From NCBI GenBank assembly GCA_029261035.1, contig JAJDCD010000005.1:27516-91515 (forward strand): a DNA stretch of 64,000 nucleotides, given 5' to 3'. Every line of letters starts with the position of its first letter. Within the stretch, counting starts at the first letter, position 1. This DNA is from Candidatus Omnitrophota bacterium. GTDB taxonomy: Bacteria > Omnitrophota > Omnitrophia > Omnitrophales > JACROU01. Below are positions 4,398-33,100 of the stretch, one piece after another. Both the position numbers and the translations under genes were made by a program. Below the pieces are notes generated by a model, which was not told where the DNA came from, ran no database searches, and saw nothing but the letters and a program-made list of their open reading frames with translations.

Positions 4398-4415
4398 GGC
4401 TTATGGAGACGTTTA

Positions 4416-7400
4416 ATGAGATATGAAAAATACCATTCAACTCAAAAGCTCTTTTCAGTTCACTCTTTAGGTGAAAAAGTTGGAAGTAGTTTTTTAATTA
4501 TTTTCTTCTTGCTGAGCACTCTTTTTGTTTCTCCTGAATCTCTTTTAGCAGAAACAGTTACCCATCAAAAACCTTCAGTATATTCTATTTCTCAAGTAAA
4601 TCAAATTCATATTCCAAAAGAGTTTGGTATCGTTGAAGAAGTTTATCATTCATCTTCTCCAGCTAAAAACAATCCTATGATTGTTTATTTACAAGATGCT
4701 CACTGTATCTATGAGGCCCAATCAAATATTCGAAAAATAATAGACACTCTTCAAAAGAAAAATGGATTACGGCTTATTGCTTTGGAAGGCGGTGAGGGAG
4801 GATTGGACACAGACCTTTTTCGATCTTTTCCTGTTCAAGCAGTAAAAGAGAAAGTGATCGATGATTATGTTCGGAGGGGGGAATTGTCAGGAGCGGAGTA
4901 TGCAGCAATTGTAAATGAAAAGTCTTCGGATTATTGGGGCATTGAGGACATGGTTGTTTATTACGAAAATAAAAATGCTTTTCTAGAATCAATTGACGAT
5001 AAAAAACGAATCGATCTAAAATTAGATGATTTAGATCGTTGGTTAAAAAAGAAAAAAGATGAAATCTATAGTAATCCCCTTAAAGATAATTTTAAAGAGT
5101 ATGAAGCATACGAGAAAGAATATATTACATTACTCGATTACTTAAACTATTTAAAAGAGCAATGGATACAAGCGGGTAAATCGCTGACGGAATTTGCAAG
5201 TATCCAGACGTTGTTGGAAGCGATTAATCGAGAGAAGCAAATGGACTTCACTCAAGTTCAAAGTGAGGCGGTTAGGCTAGAAAAAGTTTTAGAACGACGC
5301 TATAAAAGTGAAATACGTTCTGGTTCAACGACGTCTAAAGTAAGCTTTCAAGATTTAGAAGCTCGAAGGTCCCTGTTTGGAGAAGGTAAGTCTCAAAAAG
5401 ATCAATTTTACCCTTGGATTTGGGCGCGTGTTATAGAAGAGGATTTAGTTGCAGAAGATAGCTCTAATGATAGTTACCCCCATTTTCTTTCCTATATTAA
5501 ACACTTACAGGAACTGGAAAATATAAAAGGCGAAAGTCTCTTTAATGAATTAGAGAAAATGAACCAAGGAATAAAAGATTCTTTATTTCAAAATGAAGAA
5601 CAAAGAACCTTGGATCAGCTTTTTTATAACTTAAAGATACTCCGTAATCTTTCTAAGTTAGAACTCACTCGAGAAGAGCTGGAGTATTATCATAAGAATC
5701 GTGAGAGTTTGTCAGAGAAGAGTTTTTGGGATTTTATGGGAAGAGAATTGGGTCGGTTAGAATTGGATGATTTGTTCAAATCTCATGAACGTTTTTATGA
5801 AGCGGCAATCAAAAGAGATCGTATTTTGTATCAAAACCTTATGGATTTGTTGAAAGAAAAGAAACAAGATTTTGCGATGGTGGTTACGGGAGGGTTTCAT
5901 ACGGATGGTATTAAGGAACGCCTTAAAGCCAAAGGTTTTTCTTATATGGTTGTAACACCGCGCATCACCCAATTTGACGAAGAAACTCCGTATTGGGATG
6001 TGATGCAAGGAAATGTTTCTTATGCGAAGTATAAAAAGACATTTACTTTAGCGCCAGAGTTAGCATTGCAGGTTTATAACGAAGCTATTGAAGCCGCGAT
6101 TGTGGATTCCTTTGTTAGCGCAATAGAAGCAGATTTGCCTGAAGTTTTAAATTCATGGAGAGATAATGTCTTAACACAAGATTTAGATAGAGAAGTTGCA
6201 GCACAATACACAACAACGATTGATCGTTTGATTGACAGGCTTGTTTTAGGGTTAGAACAAACTCAAATTAACCCAGAGCTTATTCAAGGTGTGTCGGAAA
6301 CTCTCCGGCTTTATTTGCAAGGTGAACGAGATGCCGTTGTCCAAAAAGTGGATCAGCTTCAAGCAAGAATTTTACAGCTCCAAACTCAAAAAGTGGTTTC
6401 AAAAGCAGCGGTCAGTGCTGAGCTGGGTTCTTCATTTCCCGAATTTGCGTTACAAGAAGGAGTTTTTCAAGCTAGTTCTTTGGGAGCAATCGTTACAATT
6501 TCTGAAGCAAATCTATCTTCTTTTAATCGACTCCTAGACTTCGTTGATGCAGAAAGCATTAGGGATTTTTTAATTAATACAATTAGTTCTGTTGATGTAG
6601 AGTCTCAATTAGAGATGCTTGAACGGCTGTTGACACGTAATTCGGGTGAAAATGTCAAAATCGGTATTCCGATGACTCTCGCTGTAGAGCAGATGGTGGC
6701 TGTATATCAATTAAAAATAGGGGATGACTTAGGGGGTAAACGAAATCGGGATTTGGTTAAAATATCAAAATTGGAAATGGCAAAGAATTTATTGAAACAA
6801 ATTAAACAAACAAAAGATAGTGGAAAACCTCTTTCTGCAGAGGGTCTTGAGTTAATGACAGGACTCTTTAATATGCTTCAACCGATGTTCGATCGAACCG
6901 GGGCAAATTTAGAGTCAATGACCAATGTTTTGATTCGTAGAGATGATAGCGGAGTAGCTCCATTTCTGTCAGATAATGAGGCTGTGTTCATTATTGATCA
7001 TATTTATCCAATCAGTTTTATCAATAAAAAGGACCCAACATATTTACTTGGGGATGCTTTAATTGCAGCGCAAAAAGCTGCGTTGATAGGACTTAAAAAC
7101 CGGTATCAGTATGAAGTGGATGTCTCTTCGAAGCGAGGTGTTGTTTTTGGGATTCAGCAAGCACTTCTAGAACAATTTCATACAGACTACTTGGCTTTAG
7201 TTCAAGAAAACTTGAACAAAACAGCAGAAACTAATTCGAAATTAAAGGTGATATTAGATCAAAACCCTTCTCTCCTTAGTGATAGAGAGCTTTTTGGAGA
7301 GGGGAAAATTCGTGCAAAATACGCTTATAAAACGGGAGCTCAGATTAATGAATTGATTCCTACGTTAGGTCTTGGAATTCAATCTCTTCAGGAGCTGGGC

Positions 7401-10400: not shown

Positions 10401-12032
10401 TATGAAGAAATTTACAAACAAGGTAAAGCACCTCTTTTGAAAGAGCTCATCGATTTACTTGCTTCTCAGGGTTATCCCTTTGGCGTTCTTGAAGGTCAAG
10501 AAGGGAGTATTACTTCTGTCTTAGAGCAGTTTGAGAAATTTTCAGCGCCTCTTCGTTTTTCAATGGCTCAAGGACGAGAAGAAATGATAGCGGGATTAGA
10601 TAGAAGTCAGCAGCAAGAGTTGGATCGTCTTATTGGAGAAATTAGATCGACAGATGTGGTATTAGATCGTTTAGACGCATTGTCTCCAAATGAATTTCCT
10701 ATTAAAACATTTTCTGATCTCAATAATTTTCAAGTTGCTCAAAGAATAGAAGAGTCCGTTTATTCAGATGTATTAAGTCAGGCGGATTTTCAGTTTAATT
10801 TTAACTCTAGACGAGTAGAAGGATTTTTGGAAGGAATTGTTCCGGAGGAAATTATTTTTGATTACTATAATCCAGTTGAGGCAAATGCACTTGGAGAACA
10901 AGTGGATGTGGAGTTAATGCAAAACCAGATTGCTATTGCAACGGATATTGCCTTTATTGTTGCTGGATTATCTCCGCCTAGTGGAAGAGATAAAACAGAC
11001 TATGAGCAGTCTGATTTTTCAGACTTCACTTTGTTTTTAGCAAATCTTAATGATGAAGATAGAGAAAATTTCCTTGTTAATTTAAGAGAAGGCGTGGCGA
11101 CGGCATTTAGTACTCAATTGGATTTGAATAATATAACTCAAATAGCAGAGCAGCTGACATCGGCCTCAGGGCAACGCTCAAACGAAGAGTTGTTAACTCA
11201 ATTGCGTTTGGCTACAGGTTTAGAATTATTAGATCTTTCTGATGTTGCTTTAGAGACGTTGCGTGAAACTTTGATTGCCCCTGTACAAGTACAAGTGGCC
11301 CAATCGCAGTTGGTAAATCAGTTTGATGCTCAATATGTCGATATGACGCGGCGAATAGACTCTCCTCAAGAGTTGGATTTAATTGTAAAGGGCTTAGCAG
11401 ATTATTATAATCAAGTTCTTGAAGGTATTATTTCGAGTAGTCCAAGTATTAAGGAGTCTTTGATTGTTCAGTATGATGGGAAGTCCTTTTTGGCGACTGC
11501 TAAAAATTTAAATAATTTAATTGAGACTCTTGAGTCTGTAGGAGCTAGAGGTAAAGTAATTGTCCATCATGATCCGAATCTGACTCAAGCGATTAATGAT
11601 ATTTTTTCTCAGCTGAGAGAGGCGGGGTATGGAAATTTGCTTTCTAAAATTCAAAAATCACGTTACCCTCTCAACTTAAGAGGATCAGATGTGAATCGAC
11701 ATAGTCGTTTGGCCACACGTTCTGGATTTGGGTCTGTTGCTTATTTTGGCATTGAAAATGGAAGTGTTTTACAAGAGTCTAAAGAAGAGAATAAATTGCA
11801 AGGGGATGTTGAAAAGCTAGATCGTTTTCAACCCTTTGTTTCTCTTTTAAATCGATTTGCTGTGACTTTGGCTCAGGTTCCAAAAGAAAAGCAAGCTGAG
11901 CTTGTTTCGGAGTTTTCTAGTTTGGGAATTGAGATGACTCCTGAAGGTGTTCTTACCATTAATCTTCAATCTCTTATTAATCGTATTACTTCTGAGTATC
12001 AATCTAGGGCTAAGGTTAAGGTTGCTGCGTAA
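4416..12032 (+). CDS. Giant secreted protein (2538 aa), a member of a paralogous family with a conserved N-terminal His-motif domain (~nt 4580-6040), a shared C-terminal module, and an -AA end.
   Basis: The ORF is uninterrupted and an SD GGAG lies 7 nt upstream. The N-terminus has a hydrophobic signal or anchor segment. It is ~60-70% identical to the 3765-aa ORF over the first ~560 aa and the last ~150 aa. Motifs are YLQDAHC, ALEGG, FYEAAIKRDRIL, VVTGGFHTDGI and TPRIT. The SxxSLG motif occurs 3-4 times. The protein ends ...VKVAA. Confidence 0.85.
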   Translation: MRYEKYHSTQKLFSVHSLGEKVGSSFLIIFFLLSTLFVSPESLLAETVTHQKPSVYSISQVNQIHIPKEFGIVEEVYHSSSPAKNNPMIVYLQDAHCIYEAQSNIRKIIDTLQKKNGLRLIALEGGEGGLDTDLFRSFPVQAVKEKVIDDYVRRGELSGAEYAAIVNEKSSDYWGIEDMVVYYENKNAFLESIDDKKRIDLKLDDLDRWLKKKKDEIYSNPLKDNFKEYEAYEKEYITLLDYLNYLKEQWIQAGKSLTEFASIQTLLEAINREKQMDFTQVQSEAVRLEKVLERRYKSEIRSGSTTSKVSFQDLEARRSLFGEGKSQKDQFYPWIWARVIEEDLVAEDSSNDSYPHFLSYIKHLQELENIKGESLFNELEKMNQGIKDSLFQNEEQRTLDQLFYNLKILRNLSKLELTREELEYYHKNRESLSEKSFWDFMGRELGRLELDDLFKSHERFYEAAIKRDRILYQNLMDLLKEKKQDFAMVVTGGFHTDGIKERLKAKGFSYMVVTPRITQFDEETPYWDVMQGNVSYAKYKKTFTLAPELALQVYNEAIEAAIVDSFVSAIEADLPEVLNSWRDNVLTQDLDREVAAQYTTTIDRLIDRLVLGLEQTQINPELIQGVSETLRLYLQGERDAVVQKVDQLQARILQLQTQKVVSKAAVSAELGSSFPEFALQEGVFQASSLGAIVTISEANLSSFNRLLDFVDAESIRDFLINTISSVDVESQLEMLERLLTRNSGENVKIGIPMTLAVEQMVAVYQLKIGDDLGGKRNRDLVKISKLEMAKNLLKQIKQTKDSGKPLSAEGLELMTGLFNMLQPMFDRTGANLESMTNVLIRRDDSGVAPFLSDNEAVFIIDHIYPISFINKKDPTYLLGDALIAAQKAALIGLKNRYQYEVDVSSKRGVVFGIQQALLEQFHTDYLALVQENLNKTAETNSKLKVILDQNPSLLSDRELFGEGKIRAKYAYKTGAQINELIPTLGLGIQSLQELGNDKASENIANKISKLIVPELEDIVEEVKLSQLKSLNILNQNFYNLGRIPSDVRFNAYNRRGPPRVNDFSGLWSNANLPGIDIVVGELLEQLKKDKVDDKIEPLLPEITDYLIRLLEEALAFTERNPRHHLLFNELFFTSQVRELLQREFNPNALEEMQVALGGNRLPERLNHKTFTKGDEHFTLFRDQSGKVNYLFVDFDNFQVLDLLQRQLNVLPNDDGTFFDLHAQVDLALEALIASKEEITSQDLQEMLDRILDQVEVVLDLSDEETQKYLERHNMDPETFEKYGEIYNDKEGVFVSVPVRRVSVDTKTKYEDKRRLTGKIGNIGFSSSLTSELNLSREDSLETLYNKLESILGSGGVAVDMLKGLNRRGENVELNSTEYGQIWGDFFKKEALEKVNKKNILRELNSTELQNMDEEGKGIAVQLILNLKEEVHENRVYVIGELADLALQYGIEFAVVEGFVKMMDGLELEQPDIISAQSLGNAQISELLIQDLVQGNSPEEIRDYLKTEDVEEQIRGIGSLLAGANIRSFQREQPGQFQELFTELDVESRQRVINAAVKIATVKKKLANFLQIQNPNNLNSLIQRFRNLKVDEDPGVIMLRFLSEEGRREEFKSRMTQLQFRNDLRDYVREVVAELPAKVIPINRTQAKPHVENQIPFDLRREDALLFKDMAELLRNQNQTDTAPILRLRGKVRYAGRNLVGAGTTPTERGIRALTEQYGLEAPTSDIQTTTEELLRKMKQRYVHLLGAQVALGIQNSDELTQFLERISQQEIPILTGIEGFDLLEELIDDQKLKEIAPGVSHSFLVNQRGKRSLAVLRPNEIMFFKQFTSVKERVEAQLMGKRLEREISLSKLYPQSGVTERILDLAQKNREGERILGLVKHFKRRYPSQNERDRWLTAASELGVNRVYKREVSKRSRDVEQARKRLNEISSKIARRKNSIFSRFFNIEALESQREQLRRTYQAALEEKSSFKEKWSLNPETGKYQLAPSSNISFSYEEIYKQGKAPLLKELIDLLASQGYPFGVLEGQEGSITSVLEQFEKFSAPLRFSMAQGREEMIAGLDRSQQQELDRLIGEIRSTDVVLDRLDALSPNEFPIKTFSDLNNFQVAQRIEESVYSDVLSQADFQFNFNSRRVEGFLEGIVPEEIIFDYYNPVEANALGEQVDVELMQNQIAIATDIAFIVAGLSPPSGRDKTDYEQSDFSDFTLFLANLNDEDRENFLVNLREGVATAFSTQLDLNNITQIAEQLTSASGQRSNEELLTQLRLATGLELLDLSDVALETLRETLIAPVQVQVAQSQLVNQFDAQYVDMTRRIDSPQELDLIVKGLADYYNQVLEGIISSSPSIKESLIVQYDGKSFLATAKNLNNLIETLESVGARGKVIVHHDPNLTQAINDIFSQLREAGYGNLLSKIQKSRYPLNLRGSDVNRHSRLATRSGFGSVAYFGIENGSVLQESKEENKLQGDVEKLDRFQPFVSLLNRFAVTLAQVPKEKQAELVSEFSSLGIEMTPEGVLTINLQSLINRITSEYQSRAKVKVAA

Positions 12033-12099
12033 GTAAGCAGAGATGTGGTGTGTCGGGAACATTCCAGTTTCTTAAAGTTATAAATGTTGGGGGGTGTGC

Positions 12100-12245: not shown

Positions 12246-12430
12246 AGAGGATTTATTTTTTTTGCTTTAGAATAGCGTAACCCTTTTATTTTAAATAAGG
12301 TATGAGTTTTTAGAGGGGTGTTTTTATGGGGGATTGTATGGTGGAAACATTTGCTTTTTGGGGGGTTATAGGTTAACTTTGTACCTCGTGTTTAAAGGAC
12401 CCAAATCCATAAGAACGAGGTAATTTTTTA

Positions 12431-15400
12431 TTGAAAATCAATATCTTCCAAAAACTCATCCTTAGTAGTCTGGTGCTTCAGCTTGTGTTGAGTCCTTCAC
12501 TCTCATTTTCCCAAAATAGTGTTGAGGTGAGTTCTTTCGTAGATCAGCAAACACAAACAATTCAAAAATATTCTAAAGATCAAGTTCGTCAAAAAACCGT
12601 TATGAACTTATCCTCTGAAGATGCTAAAAATGAAATTACTCAAGAAGCGGCACGGTTATTAAACCAAAAAAGAGTCCCTTTATCTCGAATAACAACCTTA
12701 CTATCAAGAGCTCGTCCAATGAGTGCAGCAAGCTTAGGTGAAAAGGTCCCTCAATATCTTACACGCAGTTTTTTAGTTTCTCCTTCTAAAGAAGCTCTAG
12801 AGAACTCTTCTTATAAAGATCAATTGGTAGTGCGCCTTGGAGATGACGATAAAATTAGTTTTGGAGATAACCTTCCAACGGATATCACAGATCAACGTCG
12901 AAAATTAATGGTAGATGTTAGAAGTATAAAAAATAAACTAGTAACGTATTTTCCTCAACTTAAAGATATTGCTTGGGAGTTCGTATTCTATCCAGATGAG
13001 CCTGTAGTTTTGGTCGAGGGTGATAGTGAGACTACTCTTCGCATCGATTTTGAATTATTGAACTATATTAATTTGTTGGTTGTTGCAATAACGGATTTGA
13101 CTCTGAGTTATGAATTAAGAGGGTACGACAATTCTGCTTTAGTAAAAATATTTAGTGTGTCTCGAGCTGTGAATATATTGATGAATATAGATAAGAAAGA
13201 AATTGATTGGTTGGTTGCGCGAGTTGATGGCAGTCGTAAAAGTGTGTATGGGGAGATTTTGAAGAGTTTCGCGGGTAAAGGAACGAATAGTTGGGTTAAA
13301 GATAATAGCCAGAAGTCGGAACTAATAAGGCGGTTAGTTGAGTTAATCCCTGTTAATAAAGAAGAGTTAAGGGAAGTGCTAACTCAATTAAGGAATGACC
13401 AGTTAGTTGCTATGGCAAAAATGGTATTTACCTTATCTATCGTATTCGAGTCTTGGTCTGAAGAGAGAGATTTGAATTTAACCCGGTTGTTAAAAATAAA
13501 ACCTGTAGGATTGTATAACAAAATTGAGCAAGTGAATGATTATCATGCGGCTTTGAAAATGATAGAACAGTTTGAATCAAAAGTAGAAAATGGGACTTTG
13601 ATGTATGAGGATTTAAAATCTTCGAGTGAAGAGCGTAAAACATTGATGGAAACCGTTTTTATTTTAATGGTGCGAGAACGTAAATTTGATTTATTGATAG
13701 CTGTATTTAATGTATATGTGAATTCAAACATGAACCCCAACTTGCTGTTAACACCCTTATTTAATACTTTGTATGCTTCGCAACGCCACTACGGTGCATG
13801 GATTTCGTCGCGTCAGTTAGCCGAGGCTTTGGCATATGTCGTCCAAAATACGGAGAATGATATTGTAAGTGAATCGATTAAAAAATTTCCTAGTGTTCCT
13901 TGGTTGAAAATGTCAAAAGAAAATAGAATAAGTGTTGGCAAGTGGCTTGAGCACTATTTGAATGGAAGTGAAGACAAGGGTGGCGAGATTTTTCTGAGTA
14001 AGTTTATGCCAGCAGTTTCCCAGGTGGAATTTGATGATGATTTGGTTTTTGCATCGAATCGAGGTGCTTCAGATAAATATGGGAGATTAAGTCTTGAAGA
14101 ATATAGCATGTTGTCAGATTCTGTTCAAAGAAAGAAAAAGTATGTGGCTTTAGCAGAAGTAGAAAAAGAGATCGGTGGAAATCGTGAAAAAATTTTTAAC
14201 CGTACGGGAAAGACTTTTTTAAGGAACCCACCGTTTCCAATTCAATTAGTTGATGATGGTCATCTTAGAACGTTAAAAATTGATTTTGAAATTTTTAATA
14301 ATAGAACAGCTGTTTATAAAGCGAGTTTGGGTGAAATTAGAGATGAGTTTTATTTGCAGAATGCCCCTCAAAGTTTTGCGCTTAAAAAACTTTTTGCTCT
14401 CGTTAATTTTCTTGATGTTTTGGTTGGTGCTTCTGTCGAAGAAAAGAAATTTGTGACACAAAGAGCGATTCAGTCTCAGAGGTACTCGTTAGCGGCTTTT
14501 CTCAGTCATTTTGAGCAAGAAGGGTATGAAAGAGAACCGTGGGGTAATAAAAAGTGGAGAAAGAACATTTTTGAGATTTTAAAAGAGTCATTTCCTGAAT
14601 TGAACGAAAGTATTGAGAGTTTGGAATTGTTGGATTCAGATGTCTTGAGACAACAACTATCTGATCTCGAGAATGAAAGAAAAACGGAGAAGTTGTGGGA
14701 ACATTTAGCAGAGTTACTTTTTGAGGATATATTGCATTCGGGACAGTTTTTTAGGGTGTTTGATGAGATTGTGAGTGGATTGGTTTATTTGAAACAAAGC
14801 AGTCAATCAGATCGTTTGGAGCAGTTTTTGACTTTGCTTTTGCAGACTCATAATGGGAGAGATAAACTCTTTGAAGCAGTGCATAAGACTTTAAAAGAGG
14901 ATGAAAGTCGACCGTCATTAGATGAAAAAGATGTTGCGGAGATCCTTTTAGTTTTAGAGAAGTTACTTAAGAGCAGTTTGGAGAGAGGGGTGAGGTTTAG
15001 AGCTCATCCAGAAACGAAAGTTAAATATGGTCTTACAAAAGAGATCTTCCAAAAAATAAAAAGACATTATGAAGAGGGAAGAACGGTTGTGGAAGCCAGT
15101 AGTTTAGGGAAATCCTATTTTGATCCAGCGACACTGAATGATCGTCATCAAATGTTGGTGATTGATTTAAACTCCTTTTCTCTTACTCCTTATTTTTCGA
15201 AACAATTGATTCGATTTTTAGAAGAGTCTAAAAATAAGCAGATACAATTATTAGTTTCTCGTTTTCCACAAATTGCAGAATTGAAAAAAGAGTTTAAAGC
15301 GCTAGGTATTCAAGATAGAGAGCTAAAGCAAATACAGTTTATTGTTAATCCATTAATTTCTTCAGGGCATATGAGCGAACTGTCTGAATCCCTTGAAAAA

Positions 15401-15775
15401 TGGAAAATGAATTTGAGTTCTGCAAATTCTGGATCAGCTACGGATATTGCTTTTGTTTCAGATTTTGATTTATTAGAGCGTTTACAAGAAAATAGGATTC
15501 ATTCTGTAGCTCTGGACCGTGTTTTTCAGGAACAAAGAAAAGAACTGTTAGATATTTCAAATATTCATGGGGCAGAGAGGCATGCTGCGATAGGGACCTT
15601 ATTTAACCTTTCTTGGCAGCTGTTGAGCCAAGAAACCGTAGATGGCTTGTCTTATCGATTAGAGAGAGACGGAAACACGGGTATCTATGTAGCTCGACTT
15701 GAGTTTTTAAGGGAAGCTATTCAAGATTGGCTTTCTGATTTTCAATCAAAACAACTTATTGAACAAGCTGCGTAG
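12431..15775 (+). CDS. Large secreted protein (1114 aa), related to the giant family only through SxxSLG motifs and the -AA terminus. It lacks the N-terminal family domain.
   Basis: It has a TTG start (in the ORF track) and a signal-peptide-like N-terminus (LILSSLVLQLVLSPSLSFSQ). There is an internal duplication (TTLRIDFELLNY ~13030 versus RTLKIDFEIFNN ~14265). Motifs are SAASLG, YKASLG and EASSLG. It ends ...IEQAA. Confidence 0.75.
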   Translation: MKINIFQKLILSSLVLQLVLSPSLSFSQNSVEVSSFVDQQTQTIQKYSKDQVRQKTVMNLSSEDAKNEITQEAARLLNQKRVPLSRITTLLSRARPMSAASLGEKVPQYLTRSFLVSPSKEALENSSYKDQLVVRLGDDDKISFGDNLPTDITDQRRKLMVDVRSIKNKLVTYFPQLKDIAWEFVFYPDEPVVLVEGDSETTLRIDFELLNYINLLVVAITDLTLSYELRGYDNSALVKIFSVSRAVNILMNIDKKEIDWLVARVDGSRKSVYGEILKSFAGKGTNSWVKDNSQKSELIRRLVELIPVNKEELREVLTQLRNDQLVAMAKMVFTLSIVFESWSEERDLNLTRLLKIKPVGLYNKIEQVNDYHAALKMIEQFESKVENGTLMYEDLKSSSEERKTLMETVFILMVRERKFDLLIAVFNVYVNSNMNPNLLLTPLFNTLYASQRHYGAWISSRQLAEALAYVVQNTENDIVSESIKKFPSVPWLKMSKENRISVGKWLEHYLNGSEDKGGEIFLSKFMPAVSQVEFDDDLVFASNRGASDKYGRLSLEEYSMLSDSVQRKKKYVALAEVEKEIGGNREKIFNRTGKTFLRNPPFPIQLVDDGHLRTLKIDFEIFNNRTAVYKASLGEIRDEFYLQNAPQSFALKKLFALVNFLDVLVGASVEEKKFVTQRAIQSQRYSLAAFLSHFEQEGYEREPWGNKKWRKNIFEILKESFPELNESIESLELLDSDVLRQQLSDLENERKTEKLWEHLAELLFEDILHSGQFFRVFDEIVSGLVYLKQSSQSDRLEQFLTLLLQTHNGRDKLFEAVHKTLKEDESRPSLDEKDVAEILLVLEKLLKSSLERGVRFRAHPETKVKYGLTKEIFQKIKRHYEEGRTVVEASSLGKSYFDPATLNDRHQMLVIDLNSFSLTPYFSKQLIRFLEESKNKQIQLLVSRFPQIAELKKEFKALGIQDRELKQIQFIVNPLISSGHMSELSESLEKWKMNLSSANSGSATDIAFVSDFDLLERLQENRIHSVALDRVFQEQRKELLDISNIHGAERHAAIGTLFNLSWQLLSQETVDGLSYRLERDGNTGIYVARLEFLREAIQDWLSDFQSKQLIEQAA

Positions 15776-18634: not shown

Positions 18635-21600
18635 ATGAATAGTTATTCTGGTCAACCTAATTCGTGTCAGGTTGAAAGGAATGTTTTGTTAAAAAAGGTT
18701 GGAAGCCTTTTGGTATTCTTTTTCTTCCTAATAAACTCTGTTTTTTATCCCATTTCAGAAGTTTGGTCTAATCCAACTTTTAATTCCATTGTGATCCCAT
18801 CTGTTAATAAAATAGAAATTCCAAAAGAGTTTGGAATTGTTGAAGAAGTTTACCAATCGCCTACAGCCACAGAAAATAATCCTCTTATTATTTATCTTCA
18901 AGATGCTCACTGTATTTATGAAGCACAATTCAATATTAAAAATTTAATTCAATCCTTTCAAGAAGAGCATAATCTTAATTTGGTGGCGCTGGAAGGGGGC
19001 TCAGGTGCTTTAGAGACAGATTTGTTTCGTTCTTTTCCAGTTCAGGAAATTAAAGAAAAAGTTATTGATGGTTTTGTCCGAAAGGGTGAGCTGTCAGGAG
19101 CAGAGTATGCGGCTATTGTTAACCCCAAAGAGTCTACTTATTGGGGCATCGAAGATATGGATATCTATTATGAAAATAAGGAAGCATTTTTAAAGTCTAT
19201 TGAAGTTAAGGAACGCGTTGATATGAAGTTGTTGGATATTCGTAGATGGCTCAAAAAGAAAAAAGATGAAATCTACTCAAAAAGATTAAAAGAAAATTTT
19301 GATAAATCAGAGGATTATGAGACGGAAAGAATTAATTTATTGGAATACATCAAGTATTTGATTGCTTCGGCAAAATCATTGAATTTGGATTTATCTTCTT
19401 ACGTTGCTATGGCTGAGTTGCTTCAAGGGATGGAAAGAGAAAAAACAATTGATTTCACTCAGGCTCAGAGCGACGCGTTCAATATGGAACGGGATGTGGA
19501 ACGTTTCTATAAGAACAGTTCCGGTGCTGAAGCTCAAGAGGCGCTTAAAGATTTTCAGTCTAAAATTACAGACTTTAAAGAAAGAAAAGTTGAAAAAGAT
19601 CAATTTTATCCTTGGTTGTGGTCTTACGCTAAGAGAATGGGTGTTGTTTCTGAAGGGGAGGGAAAAAGCCAATATCGAAATCTATCTCATTATATCAATC
19701 ATTTAAATCAATTAGAACAAATTCAGGGAGAGGAACTATTTAAAGAACTAGAGCAAATCGATCGAGAAATTAAAAGTCAGTTATTTGAAAATGAAGAGCA
19801 AAAAATACTAGATCAACACTTCTATCACTTAAAAATATTAGAAAATTTGTCAAAGCTTGAGTTGACGCGTGAAGAGCTTGCATATTATCAGTCGAATAAA
19901 GAGCTATTTGAAGAACAGCAATTTTGGGAGTTTATGGATCGTAATATGGGCCGTTTAGAATTGGATGACTTATTTCAACCTCATATGAAATTTTATGATG
20001 CGGCTCTCAAAAGAGATCAGGTGCTTTATGATAATTTAATGAGTCTTATGGATAAACAAAATAAAAAATTTGCTATGGTTGTTACAGGAGGGTTTCATAC
20101 CGGTGGAATTAAAGAAAAATTTAAAAAAGAAGGGTTTTCATACCTTGTTTTAACTCCTCGAATCACACACTTTGATGATGAGACACCTTATTGGGATGTG
20201 ATGAAAGGAAAGGTTTCTTATGCTAAGTACAAGCAGACGACAACTCTTTCCCCAGAGCTTGCGCTGAATGTTTATAAAGAAGCAGCAGCTCAAGAAATAT
20301 CAAATCAATTAGCTCAAGCGATTACTGATGACTTGCCTTCTGTTTTAAATCAATGGAAACAAAATATTTTGCAACGTCAAGCGCAAGGTGAAAATCAGGT
20401 GCAGATTGTGGATGGATTGATTAACCAGTTTGTTTTGGGGTTGAAAGAGGTTGGTTTAGAGGGAAGTGCTGCGGAACAACTTCAAAAGGCGCTTAATGCT
20501 TATTTTCAAGGACAATTGGAAGTGGCGGTGAAAAGCATTGAAGCTTTAGAGAACCTGTTGAGCAGCCCCGATATAGAAGGTGTTTCTCCTATAGATGTGC
20601 AGAATGTGCTCCAGCAAAATCAGCAAACCAGAGCGGAGGTGCAAAACCTAGAATCCGCAAATGCATTTTCATTAGGAGATGTTAAGGCAGCTTATACAGA
20701 AATCGAAACAGAAATGCAGCTTCTTGGTTTGGATTTTCAAGATTTCAATCTGTTTACGGCTCTTTTGCCACGGGGCGAAGGTACACGGGAAGAGTTTGCA
20801 ATCAAAGTAACTCGTTATTTAGAATCGGTTGAGAACCCTGAAGTTTCTCTAACAGAATCGGAAAGAAGCGAGAATTTAAAATTAGATAATTTTTTCAAGG
20901 GGTCATTTAAAAGGGGTATTTTTTCAGATGAAATTCCTGCATCGAAAATCAGTGCTGCTAGAGTTGTTTTGGACAAAATTAAAACATTGCTTCCTTCAGC
21001 GCAGGATGTTTTCGAAAAAGAAGAAGCAGAGTTTCAAGAGAAAAAAGGGCAAGTTTTAACATATTTGCAGTCTGTGAGGTATTCGCCTGGGATCGCTTTA
21101 GAGGAGCTGTTGAATTTCCGCTCAATTACCAATGAGACAGGCCAGCCTGTTTTTCCAGGTGGCCTGTGGGATTATGAAGACCTGGACCGAATGGACGAGG
21201 ATGCGGACGTCGTAGCAGCTATAGAAGCAGCCTCTAGTCTGTATAGGGAAGAAGAAGGGCGTGTCGCTTTAGAACAAGAACTTTTAGCTGAGCGAAAAAG
21301 GCAAGAGAAGGAAACAGCGATACGTAGTTTTTATGCAGATATTTTAAATGCAAATCAAAGTGACTTTGATGCTTTGATAACGGAATTACAAGGCAGTGAG
21401 AAAGCGCTTGAAAAGCGTTTAAGTCCTTTAGGAATTGCAGTGGCTATCACGTCCAGTACGGGAGAGACGGAATTTAAGGAGTTGAGTCTTTGGGATTTTG
21501 ATACTTTGGATATTTTGGAACGGCCGGACATACAAGCTCTTAAACTAAGTTCGGAACAGAAAATAAGAACGGAAATAGAGCGAAGGAAAAGAGTGGAGGA

Positions 21601-27600: not shown

Positions 27601-29932
27601 TAAAGGTTTGGTGTCTCGTCTATTGAGTTTAAAGGATTTTAAGGAACCTAGCTTTTCTGAGGAGTCGGGGGCCGTACAGGCGGCATCTTTAGGAAATGTT
27701 CTGCCTAAAAAAGAAAATATATTAGATGTGATGACACCTGAGCGTGTAGAGCAAGCGATTAACGCCTTGAATTATTCAACGGAAGTAAGGCCAACGGATT
27801 CTTTGGGAAACCCTGGAGCTTTAATTAATATTAAGGGAGCTCGCCGTTTATTTTCTATTGGGGATTTGCATGGACGTTATGACAATTTGGAAAAAGCACT
27901 TCTGTCTCGTGATGGGTTTGGGTTAACGATGCTTGACGCTCTCAATAGAGGAGATACGCATCTCGTTATATTGGGTGATGCGATTCATGCAGGTTCAGCA
28001 GATACATCGGATGAAGCTTACTTAGATTCTTTTCGTTTGATGATGGCGATTATGAATTTAAAAGCACAATTTCCAAATTCGGTTCATTATATTTTAGGAA
28101 ACCATGATGCTTCTAATATTGGGGATGTTGAAAAGAATCGTCTGCAAAATTCCACTTTTAAACAAGGAGCTGTTCAGAGTTTTAAGTTTGAAGTGCTTGT
28201 AAAAAAAGAGTTTGGATCAGAACGCTTAGAACAAGTGAAACGGTTTTTTGAGAAATCTCCTGCGGCTTCTAAAGTGTCCTATAGAGATCAAGCGGTTCTT
28301 TTGGTTCATGCAGGTTTGACAAGCGATGTCCAAACAGAAGAGGCTTTCGTTAATTTGTTTGTCAGTAGTCAGGGTAAAAGGAGTTATGATTCAAAAAAAT
28401 TGCAAGGGGTACTGACGAATCGAAAGTTTGATCCAACTCTCATTCGTAGTGGAGCTGAGAAAGTGGGAGTTGATTTAGTCGTATCAGGGCATAACCCTCC
28501 GTTTCATCGTTCTGCAAAAAGGCAAGGGTTACAACCTATTCAGGATTGGAATCGTTTTGCGGCCCATGTGGATAACAAACAAATTGTGTTGGATGCACAA
28601 GATGGTAATGCGGGGCACTTTGACCTTGATTTGGGACGTCCCATACCACAAGATGTTTCTTATTTAGAAGCGGTGGATGGCAACAGTGCTTTTGTGTCTT
28701 ACCAGCCTGTTGCTGTGGAAGGTAATTCTCTTGGAACAGCGGTTCTGGATAAAGGAGCAACAGAAGATGTTGAGCTAAGACTTAAAAATGCATTTGAATT
28801 CAGTCGAGTATTGGCTGGGGTATCGTTTGCAACCACGAATAAAGCAACGTTAAACCAGCAGTTTCGAGACTTTATCTCCTTTGCATTAAATATTGATCCA
28901 GTAAAGAGGACATCTTTTTTAAATCAGTTAAAACAAAACTTAAAAACTACTTTTGAACAATTGGTAAAACCAAATGAATTAGGCGCTTTAACTCAAAAAC
29001 TAGCAAATCGTCAAGATTTTACAGATGCTTCTCTTAGGGAATTCTTTGTGGATGAATTTGGAACAGACGGAATTTTAGAAGGGGAGCAATTAGGAAGTTT
29101 TAGAGATCAAGTGAATCAGGTTTTAGGAGTAACTCGAGGAGTTGCTGGAGAAAGAACATCGGCTCAAGTAGGAAGTGTAAATGTACAGCAAGGGCTAAGA
29201 AGTTTTGATGCGAGTATTACCGCTTTGATGCAAGAATCAGAATTTCCAGCAACATTTGATGCTGATTTGTCCTTAGCGTTAGATGCGATTGAAAGTGAAT
29301 TTTCAACAAGGTTAGGCCTTTTAGAGCAGGATTTTGGAGATCAACTAAAACAATCAACTCAGATTCAGTTTGATGGAGATGCTTTCTTGGCAACAGCACA
29401 AGATTTGACTAATATTCAAGAAACATTAAAGGGAATAGGTAACAAAGGAAAGCTTATTGTTTATCATTTACCATCCCAGACCGCAGCTATTAATGATGTG
29501 TATGCTCAACTTTCTGCTGAGGATAAAACAGCTCTTTCTAAAATTAAAAAAGTGCGTTCTCCTGTGATTCATGTTTCAGATTTAGACCGAGCAACAAAAA
29601 AAGCCGTTAGAGAAAATCAAGGCACAGCAATTTTGTTTGGTGAAGGGAAGTTAAAGGCGCTTCTCAGGGCAAAAGATTTTAATAAAATGCAAACTAATGT
29701 GGATACTCTTGATAAATATTCTCGTTTGATCTCTATACTGAACCAGTTTGTTTTAACACTATCTCGTATTCCTGAAGATGATACAACGGGAATGAGGCAA
29801 CGTCTTATTGAGGAATTTAAGGATTTAGGGTTTAAAGAAGAAAATGGAATTATCACTATTGATTTGAGTCGATTAGTTCAACGGGTTACAGCAGAATACA
29901 AAGCTGTGGCAGCTGCTAAAAAGGCAGCTTAA
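18635..29932 (+). CDS. Giant secreted multidomain protein (3765 aa). It has the N-terminal family domain, an FHA domain, a DnaJ J-domain, an Arg-rich NLS-like tract, a calcineurin-like PPP metallophosphatase domain, the C-terminal family module, and an -AA end.
   Basis: The N-domain is at 18780-20240 (YLQDAHC, ALEGGSG, VVTGGFHTGGI, TPRIT). The FHA domain is at ~24450-24770 (ISIGRSE...VSGSHLKLRV...ITDTSKNGTVIQVDG). The J-domain is at ~25275-25440 (KKAYRKLMIKYHPDRYG). The basic tract is at 25690-25835 (KRQRRRRVAPP). The phosphatase is at ~27840-28520 (GDLHG, GDAIHAG, GNHD, VHAG, GHNP). The protein ends KKAA. Confidence 0.85.
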   Translation: MNSYSGQPNSCQVERNVLLKKVGSLLVFFFFLINSVFYPISEVWSNPTFNSIVIPSVNKIEIPKEFGIVEEVYQSPTATENNPLIIYLQDAHCIYEAQFNIKNLIQSFQEEHNLNLVALEGGSGALETDLFRSFPVQEIKEKVIDGFVRKGELSGAEYAAIVNPKESTYWGIEDMDIYYENKEAFLKSIEVKERVDMKLLDIRRWLKKKKDEIYSKRLKENFDKSEDYETERINLLEYIKYLIASAKSLNLDLSSYVAMAELLQGMEREKTIDFTQAQSDAFNMERDVERFYKNSSGAEAQEALKDFQSKITDFKERKVEKDQFYPWLWSYAKRMGVVSEGEGKSQYRNLSHYINHLNQLEQIQGEELFKELEQIDREIKSQLFENEEQKILDQHFYHLKILENLSKLELTREELAYYQSNKELFEEQQFWEFMDRNMGRLELDDLFQPHMKFYDAALKRDQVLYDNLMSLMDKQNKKFAMVVTGGFHTGGIKEKFKKEGFSYLVLTPRITHFDDETPYWDVMKGKVSYAKYKQTTTLSPELALNVYKEAAAQEISNQLAQAITDDLPSVLNQWKQNILQRQAQGENQVQIVDGLINQFVLGLKEVGLEGSAAEQLQKALNAYFQGQLEVAVKSIEALENLLSSPDIEGVSPIDVQNVLQQNQQTRAEVQNLESANAFSLGDVKAAYTEIETEMQLLGLDFQDFNLFTALLPRGEGTREEFAIKVTRYLESVENPEVSLTESERSENLKLDNFFKGSFKRGIFSDEIPASKISAARVVLDKIKTLLPSAQDVFEKEEAEFQEKKGQVLTYLQSVRYSPGIALEELLNFRSITNETGQPVFPGGLWDYEDLDRMDEDADVVAAIEAASSLYREEEGRVALEQELLAERKRQEKETAIRSFYADILNANQSDFDALITELQGSEKALEKRLSPLGIAVAITSSTGETEFKELSLWDFDTLDILERPDIQALKLSSEQKIRTEIERRKRVEEAAKDAQRINDFNRRAALAADYFKNLTLDPQKELQEILDGIYQLKDKNGASVVSLWSLDSVEDHSDVQSAKASAIDRLTQAKQEWDRINQQYAESSQFVDRATKVSQLTQYYDGLLGQYQLGMDIEQMASPFQATYVTVNEAGEQVQSRVLNGWTDSDWSISELDEVKALAEKVKAQLETRKTELEILNQQYAENQEFISYANRIQKQIRFYNNLSYEPGMDVFEAADIYRNSELRPLFSIWEDDSSQKDVLVLKARNNALDRLARQEAASEESLLPQGFYAVHSATAAQKIASILDAAVSNNPRLATRIQINKDNGAVKDIKLDNSFLDVEQDGNPLTRISSSLEDWSGITPGENFKGLSLDDSKVLLEIDNLLFSIDGEGNYEEVSAQSLGVREIYEELEEDLELLKITPRQFQSLAHDLKAASKNRRNYIATVQKVVDTLLSGNEHVYSADEQSVKDVIDRYFRAGLKKKGIFSRAIPSQNIKAAEDVLSRIASFVSRGKRLQTSLAKKISEKYNVGQVDAERRASELVNTLFDRGESAQDLMQVANELIKNIRINQPGVKNKGRLDWLEFFELLEVSPDITAQQLLTLIQNFAEKNIPAGPFLDFAQASESSSQDSERSIVDQDIGRIVAPFKDYGIKNLRHFVNAFSVEGEEGASYFSLFSRNNGPQELDFIKRLGRIFPSAINTQDVVDRFTDAGLIQEDIGVYLSDALAQGEQLGRLTQLSRILIEFSIDEENEDAVRAFLLSIQSKLPDSFSGIREVVNKIVVQTSINPIEVQPFYEFNQGIAFSDEHKKLVLASVLLRQAQVSEADVFNLLNTNKSLSELGIEVSNQVAKEFYVTAFDDRGFSQIRKRLGDLVNKINASNPQKRFAYRQSGSDLLKTRKDQLLMAIRRAKIKEEQRVEAEERRKVFERQAAEQRVLESPVRIKQSLIKGEPIIIDSNNPITFELAGQSDFSLSLLPLSTGEIGIYLVNQAGQSFPLNIGTNNVLREGEDISIGRSELESFNLPGIVRVSGSHLKLRVDAKADGSGKHISITDTSKNGTVIQVDGTLGSLGDNLSSAIADRVRKANIDAVVLDLIADKPTGFPVGVNMQEYSRIEGILSELGGSQLRRNEAALKRVLRAAVQKMSLPTLEESLEQGRNLRVDGQFDQAIDYYLNLPVQQQQNVNVQLGLFHSYLGAKQLENAASVLEDLNISRTLSDYEKEARRGQLERFNTEGIPYMLLDAAIGAEYVDVKKAYRKLMIKYHPDRYGNESQEIQDAVKNISAALNGAHTSIEITAKSLGQLGTLDKIQVRSDESLNTLIPFIQRTRDNSLKRRLDSILSKPPNQRDVREVNQLIQQIARGLKVHPSRLFKSPVQPQRSRGAAVLSRTRRAPERAPRLVPSGRREQVPVKRQRRRRVAPPQTPQVRIQDKSLYDQEAQAIQRALQEAERRAAFSREQQRVRREARIAAIEEQLKKPLVERLETVSLEEVESILQGSIASGIQGRRNYFKDSVTGDYYLLKEMTFATFGDVLHSEVSDLVGFDSVRAEYVENFNGKTGLLTKIVRDSQTLGDFTRFSNHGNIDSRGVVQDLKKASVVDLLLLDEDRFANNFLVTVSVDGKARLHSIDHPPSEIDSYTKYLETLGLTEQNVGRGRSFASDLEAVGRLVDLQKIVDDITKQSQFGNNAKKEIARRFQIISQNLFNSGNPEDQKMASKIGGKLRDYLILQAYVKNQLSQAVQVKGANGVTLRGSRYFGLNDQDIDFNRDLLPVITELKEKLTDEKIDSILESANIPQEKRNAVRETMRLRRDLIEEVLREYYSRPREIDASIGYLTPDDVTNELLITDRVFQRAVEKEVLPVLEEIRDTALSEGKVEVLVERAKLSKALVQVAVKLKRLTADFTTRVGETPRPDENVVKSNQGKDLIDLRIYQLLFFVEQFNQIVDTAGKTPIQKLILGRSTAEIAPLLRLSPQKGVVNKDIYAAIKSLSVLSRPAPTNPNFNNLMQRRENKLELDAKGLVSRLLSLKDFKEPSFSEESGAVQAASLGNVLPKKENILDVMTPERVEQAINALNYSTEVRPTDSLGNPGALINIKGARRLFSIGDLHGRYDNLEKALLSRDGFGLTMLDALNRGDTHLVILGDAIHAGSADTSDEAYLDSFRLMMAIMNLKAQFPNSVHYILGNHDASNIGDVEKNRLQNSTFKQGAVQSFKFEVLVKKEFGSERLEQVKRFFEKSPAASKVSYRDQAVLLVHAGLTSDVQTEEAFVNLFVSSQGKRSYDSKKLQGVLTNRKFDPTLIRSGAEKVGVDLVVSGHNPPFHRSAKRQGLQPIQDWNRFAAHVDNKQIVLDAQDGNAGHFDLDLGRPIPQDVSYLEAVDGNSAFVSYQPVAVEGNSLGTAVLDKGATEDVELRLKNAFEFSRVLAGVSFATTNKATLNQQFRDFISFALNIDPVKRTSFLNQLKQNLKTTFEQLVKPNELGALTQKLANRQDFTDASLREFFVDEFGTDGILEGEQLGSFRDQVNQVLGVTRGVAGERTSAQVGSVNVQQGLRSFDASITALMQESEFPATFDADLSLALDAIESEFSTRLGLLEQDFGDQLKQSTQIQFDGDAFLATAQDLTNIQETLKGIGNKGKLIVYHLPSQTAAINDVYAQLSAEDKTALSKIKKVRSPVIHVSDLDRATKKAVRENQGTAILFGEGKLKALLRAKDFNKMQTNVDTLDKYSRLISILNQFVLTLSRIPEDDTTGMRQRLIEEFKDLGFKEENGIITIDLSRLVQRVTAEYKAVAAAKKAA

Positions 29933-30152: not shown

Positions 30153-33100
30153 ATGAAACGGATTAGAATTGCTTTCATATATTTTACTTTGCTGACGTTT
30201 TGCAGTACTTCTATGCCTCAACATTCTTTTGCTGAAGCTGCAAAAGAAAATGTTTCTATCAAATCATTCCTGGATATCTCACCTGATTTAGCTCTTGTGG
30301 ATGAGGTTTATTATCCTAAAAACTCTAAAAACAAAGACAAATTCCTTATTTTCATTCAAGATCATCATGCGTCCGTACAGATGCAACGTCAAATAGCTCA
30401 GTTGATTCAGTGGTATGTTAAAGAAAAGCAAATTCCTTTGGTGGGTTATGAGGGAAATCGAGGTTTAATTCAGACGGATAAAGTTTTTTGGGTGCCCAGC
30501 CCAGAACTTAATTTAGAAGTGTCAGAGTACTTTCTCAAACAGCTTCAAATATCAGGCCCAGAATATGCGCATATCAATAAACAAAAAGAATTTGATTTAG
30601 TGGGTGTTGAAGATATGGGTTTGTATCGAAAAAATTTAAAATTGTTTCAAGATGCTTTCCGAATACGTTCTGAAGCAGAAGGTATTCTTAAGGTGCTAGA
30701 AAAAGAGATTGAAAGAAGTATTCGCTCTAGAGCTTCAGACTCCTTGATTAAGATTTTTGCAATGATGAAACAATATCGAGATAACCCAAGAGAAATGTAT
30801 GCGTACTTAGAGTTTCTCAGCAAGAGAGACCCTGAACAAGTCGCGATGTTAAAACAAATTCAATTGCTTCAAGAATTAGATCAATCCCAAAAAAAATGGG
30901 ATCCGTTAAAGCTTGTAAATGAGATGGGTGGATTTTTGCTTCAAAATAATATCAATGTAGATTCCGAACAATTGAAAATAGAAATTTCTCAACCTTCAGC
31001 AAATACAAAAAAAGCAATTCGTAATATGTCAGATGGAGAGAGGTCTGCTTTTCCTCTAATAAACTCTTGGTCGAATTATATCGAAAAAAGAGATCAGTTG
31101 GATGTTTCGGAGCTTTATAAAGAGCTGAGTATTTTAGAAAAAAACGTTGTTAAGCGTCTAGCACAAGCAGAAGGTTTGTACCCATTGTTTGAAGCTTGGT
31201 TTCATGTAGAGGCTTTGAAGAGTATTTTGTATTTGTCTGCAACGAGACAGCAAGTAGAGGAGTTCTGGACTCAACCGCTGTCTTATAAACAAAAATATTT
31301 TACTGACACATTAGCACCTTATTCAAAAGGGATTGAAACACAGTTAAAGAATAAAAATTTAGATTCCTTGATGCGATTTCCAAACCAATTTTATAGAACC
31401 GCTTTGGATCGAGATCTTGTTATGGCTCGTCAAATTATGAAGTACCTAGAAGATCAGAACCGAATGCTTTTTGTGTCTGGAGGTTTTCATAGACGAGGGG
31501 TGACTCAAGTGCTTCGAAGAAACAAAATTCCCTATGCGGTATTAACACCTCAAGTAGACACGGATCAAAAGATTCAAGACAAAATTTATATGCAACGTGT
31601 TTTAAATGCTCCATGGATTGAGACGGGTCAGTTTGGCCGAGTTCAAAGTTTTAGACAGCCGACTTTGTTTAATCAGCTGCCTTCCAAAGCGCGTGTTCTG
31701 GTGGACCAAGTGGCCATGCGTATAGCTCGTCAAGTAAAGCGGTTGGAAGTGACTGTTCCTCAAATTCAAGCGATGCTTCAGGACGACATGGATCGTTTTT
31801 TAAATAGAGGTTTTCAACCTGTGTCTGCGCAAAGCCTAGGGGATACGACCGTCTTGGACACGAGTTTGCTTTTTCCGCAAGACCTTATTGAAGATCAATA
31901 TGATGATAGTCCTGTATTACTTCTTTTTAAGGCTAGAATGGGAAACACTCCTGAACAGACTCCTGAATATGAATTTGCAACGGATGTGGATACTCAAATA
32001 ACAAGATCTATGGAACCTGGCGTTAGGCAGGTTCTAAACCAAATCCAGCAAATCAAAAATAAATTGGATACGATAAATAAAGAGATTTTTTATGGTGTGC
32101 AAATACATGTAATGAGAAATTCATCAAAATCAATTTCGTTGAGGGAGGAGCAGAAGCAGCTTATCTTAGAAGTTGATTATCGACTTTTTGTAAATAAAAA
32201 TATTTTATTTCCAGCAATCATAGAAATAATCATGGGTAATCATCTGAGGGAAGTTCCCAACTTACAATGGGTTAAACTGTATGCAGTATTTGAAGCTTTA
32301 AAATGGTTGGCAAATTCTCAGCCGGATTCAGATGTGCAAGCTTGGCTGCTTAGAAGTTTAGCCCATGATGATGTTCAATATTATCGGTTTGCTCAATTCA
32401 TGACAGATAACTGGCGAACTTTTGACCCAAATCAAGAGCGAGAAATTCATTTTTCGGATTTGGATCAGCAGCCGCTGCTTGTTGGGATTGCTAACGAAAT
32501 TTGGCCCAAGAGTAAGGAGCAAGAAGCTGAGATTCAACAGCTGAATCCAGAAGCCGCAAGTTTTGACTTGGAACAGTTTAAAATTTTATTTGGAGATCTT
32601 GATCAAGTAACAGAAGCTCTAGAACATATTCACAGCTATCGGGAAATTAAACAGGTTGAAGTAACTATCGATAACCATGTAGCAAATATGGACGATTTAA
32701 CAAAAGTTCAATTGTATGAGATTATAGACCGTATATTGGCTACTGAAGCTCGAGATCGGGAACATCGCCTTCATTTCGTTCGTTACTTGATGAATTTTTT
32801 AATTGTTAATCAGAGGTATGATTTAGCGACACATATTATGTTTTTAATTAAAGATACTCAGGATCCCATGGATACAGTTATTCGTGTGTATGAAGGGATG
32901 GATTTAGGTGCATTAATGGGCGTTCAGTTAGAAGTACATGATGTAGCAAGTTTTCTGTCTTATCTTCATGAAGAAGGTGTGGTCTTTGGAGCGGAACGTT
33001 ATACCGTGGAAGATATTGCTTTTTCTGCTGCCGATGCATTTCCAGAACTTGAGGGTGTTAGTAACGATCAAATTAATGAAGTTTACGAAACGTTTGAAGC

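Follow-up and report, generated by a model that had tools for sequence, protein, structure and literature searches.

In SsrA-tagged proteins, the last two alanines together with the free carboxylate are the main determinants recognised by ClpX, and Tsp prefers small non-polar residues at the C terminus. Signals of the PEP-CTERM, LPXTG and GlyGly-CTERM types consist of a short motif followed by a C-terminal transmembrane (TM) helix and a basic cluster. The Omnitrophota, a phylum of uncultured nanobacteria that may be predatory, have become known for their giant genes, and the tail family described here bears on the question of how the encoded proteins are handled. The present analysis concerns the C termini of six giant proteins encoded in a 64,000-nucleotide stretch of a Candidatus Omnitrophota genome (assembly GCA_029261035.1, contig JAJDCD010000005.1, positions 27,516 to 91,515), referred to below, at its full length, as the window. 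All six end in Ala-Ala, as an initial annotation had pointed out. Comparison with relatives showed, at the level of sequence, that -AA is this lineage's form of a family-wide, strictly C-terminal motif, namely two hydrophobic residues, any residue, [S/A] and [L/V/A], followed by the free carboxyl end.

A terminal motif shared by six giants and their relatives

The window has a guanine-plus-cytosine content of ~37%, and its genes lie nearly all on the + strand. The six giants are named by their length in amino acids (aa): g2538, g1114, g3765, g1392, g2607 and g2307 (Table 1). They are paralogues, and five of them (not g1114) have an N-terminal domain of ~480 aa in common, referred to here as the N-domain. 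The -AA end was found in 6/6 giants and in 0/18 other open reading frames (ORFs) of at least 150 aa, as claimed by the initial annotation; among 69 mechanically called ORFs of at least 60 aa, the sole other AA end belongs to a 65-aa antisense ORF inside g1114. The window and 80 related loci served to approximate the proteome-wide background. Among ORFs there that are neither family members nor tail-bearing, -AA occurs in 2/251 (0.8%) and [SA][LVA] in 13/251 (5.2%). The resulting chance of six -AA ends in six proteins, ~3e-12, would hold only if the six were independent, and is overstated since they are paralogues. The main evidence against chance, from the alignment, is instead that the end is conserved while the rest of the tails diverged. 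The initial annotation's view that the common end is unlikely to be accidental can therefore be retained, with the end read as being under selection. The two alanine codons vary among the giants (GCTGCG three times, GCAGCT, GCCGCA and GCGGCT), and the DNA downstream of the six genes is unrelated, indicating that the end is kept at the protein level. These differences also rule out a DNA-level explanation in the form of a shared 3' repeat.

The C termini of g2607 and g2307 were initially described as different from the others, yet all six tails align without gaps over their last 22 residues. With the last residue numbered 0 and the others counted back as -1, -2 and so on, Leu is present at -21 in 6/6 tails, a hydrophobic residue at -14 and at -4 in 6/6, Tyr or Phe at -10 in 4/6, and Ala at -1 and 0. 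This register is the spacing expected of an amphipathic helix, and the tails have the composition of charged amphipathic helices. They have diverged at most positions, with only the register positions and the AA end kept.

Relatives from other genomes were collected from 80 related Omnitrophota loci, in which the reading frame was walked to the true stop codon. All complete long members (at least 900 aa; 30/30) end in [S/A][L/V/A]. Their last residue is Leu in 15, Val in 12 and Ala in 3, the penultimate residue is Ser in 21 and Ala in 9, position -3 is Leu or Met in 20/30, and position -4 is Val, Ala, Leu or Ile in 29/30. The end rule is not followed as a family motif by 12 short members (~520–820 aa), which consist mostly of the N-domain alone. 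An exhaustive hidden Markov model (HMM) search gave 141 new representatives, 87 of which end in [S/A][L/V/A] (SL 43, AA 24, SV 9 and AL 8); most of the other 54 ends look like truncations at contig ends, which is an assumption. The initial annotation had named family members lacking the AA end as the observation that would count against it, and such members are thus present in other genomes.

A subfamily marked by "...RR..LW" ends in WAA, WSV, WSL or WSA. The alternation of WAA, WSV and WSL within one subfamily indicates that AA and S[LV] are interchangeable. We infer that Ala-Ala has the same function as Ser-Leu and Ser-Val and does not mark the proteins for degradation. The same tail, mostly with an -AA end (IRTAA, VLMAA, ILIAA, ALQAA), is found on neighbouring giants in which no N-domain was detected. 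One locus can hold differing ends, and a third variant ends in [K/R/N]A. Across more than 130 divergent members, no residue was found to be added after the motif.

The tail consensus comprises a helix, then G-phi-phi-R-phi-LPR-phi-x-P-phi-D/N (phi, hydrophobic), then a helix of ~17 residues ending in [SA][LVA]. The terminal motif is the last turn of this amphipathic helix, whose hydrophobic positions are 0, -3/-4, -7, -10/-11 and -14; a short strand and a Pro-containing loop come before the helix. Conservation is thus not confined to the last residues, with ~20–45 residues upstream of the end being co-conserved. A C-terminus-anchored position matrix of the last 34 residues (threshold score at least 15) picked out 131/279 terminal windows and 3/597,299 internal windows; the training tails were included in the former count, so that the informative part is the lack of internal copies and of extensions past the motif.

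With this matrix, the tails of the six giants each rank in the top 0.0–1.4% of internal windows, and in the top 0.05–9% when the last two residues are removed. Between their hydrophobic register and that of the canonical tail, the correlation is r = 0.36 without the last two residues, a value equalled by ~5% of random sextets. All six giants carry both the end rule and the helix register that mark family members. We assign the six tails to this tail class, as diverged examples of it, mostly because of their N-domain family membership, the common end rule and the register.

The initial annotation also reported a C-terminal module of ~150 aa shared by g2538 and g3765. This module, here called type A, is real, and its extent was found to be ~390–410 aa (31–34% identity). 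The motifs FLATA[KQ][ND]L[NT]N[LI][IQ]ETL, GK[VL]IV[HY]H and L[IV][NQ]R[IV]T[SA]EY[QK] are all present as reported, whereas LFGEGK occurs in g3765 only. The interval first assigned to the module of g2538 lies within the type A module; its start at 11470 is two bases ahead of the in-frame Phe of FLATA (11472), which is immaterial. A second C-terminal module, type B (~225 aa, 31–33% identity), is common to g1114 and g1392. Neither a word-indexed homologue search nor a metagenome-contig scan with the type A module gave a match.

The end domain and a possible role of the free carboxyl end

A C-terminal domain of ~230 aa is common to 40 representatives and always runs to the last residue. An AlphaFold model obtained from 26 of these 40 (predicted local distance difference test, pLDDT, 88.8; predicted template modelling score, pTM, 0.86) has an alpha/beta three-layer fold of the flavodoxin/Rossmann-like type, in which the tail strand (222–227) and the terminal helix (233–249) reach pLDDT 90–95. 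The model shows that, in the best-sampled subfamily, the tail strand and the last helix are predicted to lie inside a confident ~230-aa alpha/beta end domain. No linking of end-domain subfamilies was obtained by HMM at E < 1e-3. A word-indexed search with the canonical end-domain alignment gave no match although members exist, which we ascribe to a limit of the tool and do not count as evidence.

The giants that bear the tail differ in architecture, some having the N-domain and others not, and their genes are clustered in the genome. All six giants have one N-terminal hydrophobic segment with basic residues ahead of it and no TM-like segment further on, no hydrophobic segment being found past residue 120 in any of them. 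A signal-peptide-like N terminus is present in 86/95 tail-bearing representatives, 78/95 being without a further TM-like segment, and complete tail-bearing proteins without the N-domain have it as well.

The end of the leader, "...F.F(S/Y)N(I/V)(A/S)FA", was observed to be conserved in 38/95 representatives and in tail-bearing proteins without the N-domain. Examples within the first ~40 aa, often reading "...SNIAFA", come from loci L014, L010, L007, L015, L027, L030 and others. Such conservation suggests a specialised rather than a generic signal peptide.

How might a free carboxyl end come to be conserved in this way? The last residue occupies what would be a core-facing position of the helix, and a free end held in a constrained site, whether by an intramolecular contact or by contact with a partner, would require the chain to stop exactly there. 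The end domain may then be a common handle, recognised once the giants have been exported and used to sort, attach or assemble them. A handle acting after export is proposed because the complete tail-bearing proteins also have a Sec-type signal-peptide-like N terminus, and the logic would be that of the C-terminal domain in type IX secretion, with an unrelated fold. The initial annotation had offered a C-terminal sorting or secretion signal as its second option; this is viable if the signal is taken to be the entire end domain. We favour a handle for sorting or assembly because it would explain three things: the lack of any extension past the motif, the invariably final place of the domain on proteins that are otherwise heterogeneous, and its pairing with signal peptides. 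The full statement, that a family-wide terminal motif and its end domain form a post-Sec sorting or assembly handle and that -AA is not a degron, is the one we tentatively prefer, at slightly less than an even chance.

Several observations weigh against this sorting or assembly handle. The tails of the window lack the Pro loop and are divergent, and an HMM built from the tails of 112 relatives did not detect any of the six. When a 1021-aa member from another subfamily was modelled over its full length, the N-domain was confident and the tail was of low confidence and undocked. With hhalign, module A matched the canonical end domain only weakly (probability 11%), FLATAKNLNNLIETL..GKVIVHH being paired with the start of the domain, and module B gave no match to the domain. 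Packing within a domain is enough to conserve the end of a helix, even if nothing reads it. Assignment of the signal peptides relied on hydrophobicity and visual inspection only, and the typically cytoplasmic enzymes predicted in the middle of these proteins fit export poorly. Apart from an operon for an efflux pump of the resistance-nodulation-division (RND) type described below, no recurrent neighbour in the 80 loci hints at a receptor or machinery.

Some of these points favour a purely structural end. The alpha/beta domain would then have a job of its own (ligand binding, catalysis or oligomerisation), [SA][LVA] would be just the last core-facing turn of its final helix, the free C terminus would go unread, and the domain would be no sorting handle. 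The confident modelling of the tail inside a folded domain, the periodicity 0, -3/-4, -7, -10/-11 and -14 of a packed amphipathic helix, and the finding of no machinery nearby are all consistent with this. Packing alone sits less well with more than 130 divergent members that never carry an extra residue, which would be unusual under such a constraint, and with a domain that is always last, on differing architectures that all have signal-peptide-like N termini. A structural end is a serious possibility but on balance an unlikely one. The reading preferred by the initial annotation was an SsrA-like degron, by which ClpXP or ClpAP in the cytoplasm, or periplasmic Tsp/Prc, would impose regulated or rapid turnover on the giants. 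Beyond the AA end of all six, it could appeal to the fact that predicted export would still allow recognition of the Tsp type. It is not supported by the ends of relatives, which use SL, SV, AL and AV interchangeably with AA, SL being commoner than AA, nor by the residue at -2, which is Leu in LAA but V, Q, K, I, R and R in the six giants (hydrophobic in 2/6). Modelling of the canonical subfamily makes the end the last turn of a helix within a domain and not a floppy tag, and the co-conserved stretch upstream extends far beyond what a degron needs. The signal-peptide-like N termini predict a C terminus outside the cytoplasm, away from ClpXP. A scan of the window and of 60 of the 80 related loci detected no transfer-messenger RNA (tmRNA). 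We regard a degron as very unlikely.

An uncleaved type I secretion signal, to be used by an ATP-binding cassette (ABC) transporter, a membrane-fusion protein (MFP) and TolC as in giant RTX adhesins, is brought to mind by the giant size, by the conserved amphipathic C-terminal helix with its hydrophobic end, and by HlyD-family and TolC-like genes next to family members in 7/80 loci. In these loci, the genes accompany an RND pump of the AcrB type (ACR_tran, E = 1e-277; ~1055-aa gene) and not an ABC exporter, and the lead was dropped for that reason. Moreover, ABC exporter, MFP and TolC genes are lacking in the window, no RTX repeat domains were detected, and all six giants have the signal-peptide-like N termini that are absent from type I substrates, making a type I signal extremely improbable. 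Even less credence, close to none, is given to the idea that the common end is a meaningless accident of recent duplication or gene conversion of the 3' end. The clustering of the paralogues on one strand would suit it, and the differing alanine codons, the unrelated flanking DNA, the divergence of the tails save at the register positions and AA, and the same terminal rule across hundreds of distant relatives all speak against it. Returning to the sorting or assembly handle, a more specific form can be put forward, in which the end domain with its free [S/A][L/V/A] would be the recognition element of an undescribed, Omnitrophota-specific post-Sec pathway by which giant multi-enzyme proteins are sorted, anchored or assembled. 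This form is doubtful. A terminal element on chains of 1–7 thousand aa (kaa) might serve as a completeness check, by which only fully translated giants would be admitted.

N-domain, middle domains and neighbouring genes

The N-domain carries the pattern IQDAH...AQ.NI...LEG ... TGGFH, with invariant H, Q, E-G, R and GGFH. A homologue search with it returned matches that are all Candidatus Omnitrophota proteins. A scan of one genome per GTDB species found 382 relatives, essentially all in metagenome-assembled genomes of Omnitrophota type; the closest is only 53% identical, so the organism of the window is not among the scanned species representatives. A profile search of 1.84 billion cluster representatives (clusters of this family being defined at 50% identity) gave 10,377 matches at E <= 1e-3, nearly all of them from Omnitrophota, and 7,486 at E <= 1e-30; g2538 and g3765 each have an identical counterpart among the representatives. 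The N-domain and the tail are matched by no model in Pfam or NCBIfam, and sequence searches of the PDB found no match for either. The motif pattern (His/Glu/GxxH) is suggestive of the Tiki/TraB/ChaN/erythromycin-esterase superfamily. Using the model of the 1021-aa member as query, the best Foldseek match by probability was the erythromycin esterase EreC (6xcs_A), a weak one (E = 0.04, probability 0.72). A Tiki/TraB/EreA-like N-domain is thus plausible but unproven.

In some genomes, the N-domain was observed as a separate ORF of ~520–570 aa without a tail, in at least two cases followed at once by a tail-bearing ORF of ~2800–3000 aa. This arrangement could reflect a gene that has been split, decoding by frameshift or readthrough, or a giant made as two proteins. 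One relative (P0015, 886 aa) has a Ser/Thr protein kinase domain ahead of the N-domain.

The middle of the family proteins is varied. Phosphoglucomutase is found in 10/22 members, and other middle domains include enolase, transaldolase, glucose-6-phosphate isomerase, nucleotidyl transferases and kinases, as well as PRK, APH, starch synthase and HEAT plus GNAT. Within the window, g1392 contains HATPase_c, and g3765 contains DnaJ and a metallophosphatase, a calcineurin-like phosphoesterase (aa 2213–2260 and 3075–3287). The DnaJ, phosphoesterase, HATPase_c and kinase modules of the family are eukaryote-like or regulatory.

The RND operon, comprising TolC-like and HlyD-family genes and one or two AcrB-type pumps, adjoins an N-domain giant in the seven loci mentioned above. 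It lies mostly directly upstream on the same strand; in one locus (L013), it is downstream on the opposite strand. No RND/TolC/HlyD operon is present within the window.

Further observations concern the rest of the window. A palindromic intergenic element, TCATCCC(C/G)G...loop...C(G/C)GGGATC, is present in five copies, with 0 expected in 100 shuffles, and three of the five sit just downstream of giant genes. By its sequence, the element looks like a repeat of the repetitive extragenic palindromic (REP) or miniature inverted-repeat transposable element (MITE) type, or like a terminator hairpin family. Two small paralogues with a carboxypeptidase-regulatory-like beta-sandwich end lie near the two ends of the window (21-686 and 61808-62524); they end in ...EIEVSVGANQTAELNVSYSG and ...EEEVSVDADGSAEVNFTFSA, and a related copy is present in locus L001. 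Between two giants, a protein that looks secreted is encoded at 16008-17588; it has a VWA domain and, C-terminally, a discoidin/Sad1-UNC-like domain, and an exonuclease III-like gene (17625-18392) comes after it.

Table 1. Features of the window and of related loci. Positions are those of the window, or of the related locus where one (L followed by a number) is named.
Feature	Position	Strand	Remark
g2538 ORF	4416-12032	+	2538 aa; ends VKVAA
g1114 ORF	12431-15775	+	1114 aa; ends IEQAA
g3765 ORF	18635-29932	+	3765 aa; ends AKKAA
g1392 ORF	30153-34331	+	1392 aa; ends IRIAA
g2607 ORF	34528-42351	+	2607 aa; ends IARAA
g2307 ORF	51202-58125	+	2307 aa; ends LKRAA
Signal-peptide-like hydrophobic segment of g2538	4473..4553	+	
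Equivalent segments	12431-12511, 18680-18769, 30153-30236, 34528-34635, 51202-51285		
N-domain of g2538	4578..6050	+	
N-domain of g3765	18797..20224	+	
N-domain of g1392	30267..31559	+	
N-domain of g2607	34669..36159	+	
N-domain of g2307	51325..52701	+	
Type A module of g2538	10857..12029	+	aa 2148-2538; 31% identity to g3765
Type A module of g3765	28691..29929	+	aa 3353-3765; similarity to g2538
Type B module of g1114	15092..15772	+	aa 888-1114; 31% identity to g1392
Type B module of g1392	33657..34328	+	aa 1169-1392; similarity to g1114
Tail of g2538	11952..12029	+	last 26 aa, LTINLQSLINRITSEYQSRAKVKVAA, then TAA
Tail of g1114	15695..15772	+	RLEFLREAIQDWLSDFQSKQLIEQAA, then TAG
Tail of g3765	29852..29929	+	ITIDLSRLVQRVTAEYKAVAAAKKAA, then TAA; fits the family tail matrix best among the six
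Tail of g1392	34251..34328	+	NFSYLTESMERWLNQYRQEQIIRIAA, then TAA
Tail of g2607	42271..42348	+	FLNSLVNLINDLAKTKKAQQLIARAA, then TAA
Tail of g2307	58045..58122	+	LVFRLELLTQQLMDGQQVLLALKRAA, then TAG; fits the family tail matrix least well among the six
Palindromic element	995-1018	-	
Palindromic element	29980-30007	+	
Palindromic element	42355-42378	+	
Palindromic element	42429-42452	-	
Palindromic element	43543-43570	-	
Separate N-domain ORF, then tail-bearing ORF	L002 9833-11428, then 11370-20489		
Separate N-domain ORF, then tail-bearing ORF	L062 2210-3769, then 3757-12237		
Separate N-domain ORF	L013, L023, L026, L053, L063, L072, L080		
RND operon next to N-domain giant	L013, L028, L033, L038 (2442-8459), L042, L052, L058		

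Comparison with known systems

What does the tail family offer beyond this one locus? The family comprises more than 10,000 clusters without a curated model, with a conserved N-domain and a tail that is always exactly last. The tail is a sequence handle by which one class of giants can be catalogued, and it separates complete from truncated calls in fragmented metagenomes. The ~230-aa end domain and its four-residue end rule provide a defined element for work on sorting, assembly or turnover. The case also advises caution, in that the relatives should be checked before an Ala-Ala end is taken for an SsrA-like degron.

Among described proteins, the closest in origin are the Omnitrophota giants of West-Roberts et al. 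2023 (10.1101/2023.11.21.568195) and of a 2026 preprint on complete genomes (10.64898/2026.06.07.730766). The parts of these two sources considered here describe proteins of the same phylum with frequent signal peptides or TM segments and with multi-enzyme content that includes phosphoglucomutase, starch synthase, HATPase, GNAT and HEAT. They deal with proteins of at least 10 kaa, whereas those described here have 1–7 kaa, and the same parts contain no mention of such an N-terminal domain or conserved C-terminal tail. The tension between cytoplasmic enzymes and export is echoed, for longer giants, in the portion of the 2026 preprint considered (10.64898/2026.06.07.730766).

Substrates of SsrA tagging, ClpX "C-motif 1" and Tsp (Prc) resemble the present proteins in having a free end of two small non-polar residues. 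They differ from the family described here, in which the end is [S/A][L/V/A] without Leu at -2, belongs to a helix in a modelled domain, and is carried by proteins with predicted export. Exosortase and sortase signals (PEP-CTERM, LPXTG and GlyGly-CTERM) were rejected, since the giants have no C-terminal TM helix and their tails are charged and amphipathic. Type I signals, as in giant RTX adhesins and HasA/PrtG-type proteins, share the giant size and an uncleaved, conserved C-terminal region with a hydrophobic end; unlike type I substrates, the present proteins have signal-peptide-like N termini and no RTX repeats, and the MFP and TolC genes found nearby belong to an RND pump.

The C-terminal domain (CTD) of cargo of the type IX secretion system (T9SS) in Bacteroidota is similar in being a folded domain that is always last, on many cargo proteins of unrelated architecture, with many copies per genome, within one phylum, and together with an N-terminal Sec signal peptide. 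The T9SS CTD is a beta-sandwich of ~80–100 aa, whereas the domain described here has ~230 aa and an alpha/beta fold ending in a helix. No NCBIfam or Pfam CTD model matches it, no machinery of the T9SS or any other kind was identified, and the domain is not known to be cleaved. Membership in the T9SS CTD family is excluded by the lack of a model match and by the differing fold, leaving a likeness of logic only. Should the more specific and doubtful form of the handle, with its Omnitrophota-specific pathway, be correct, the end domain would constitute a new class of C-terminal sorting domain, in which a logic like that of the T9SS CTD is carried by an unrelated fold.

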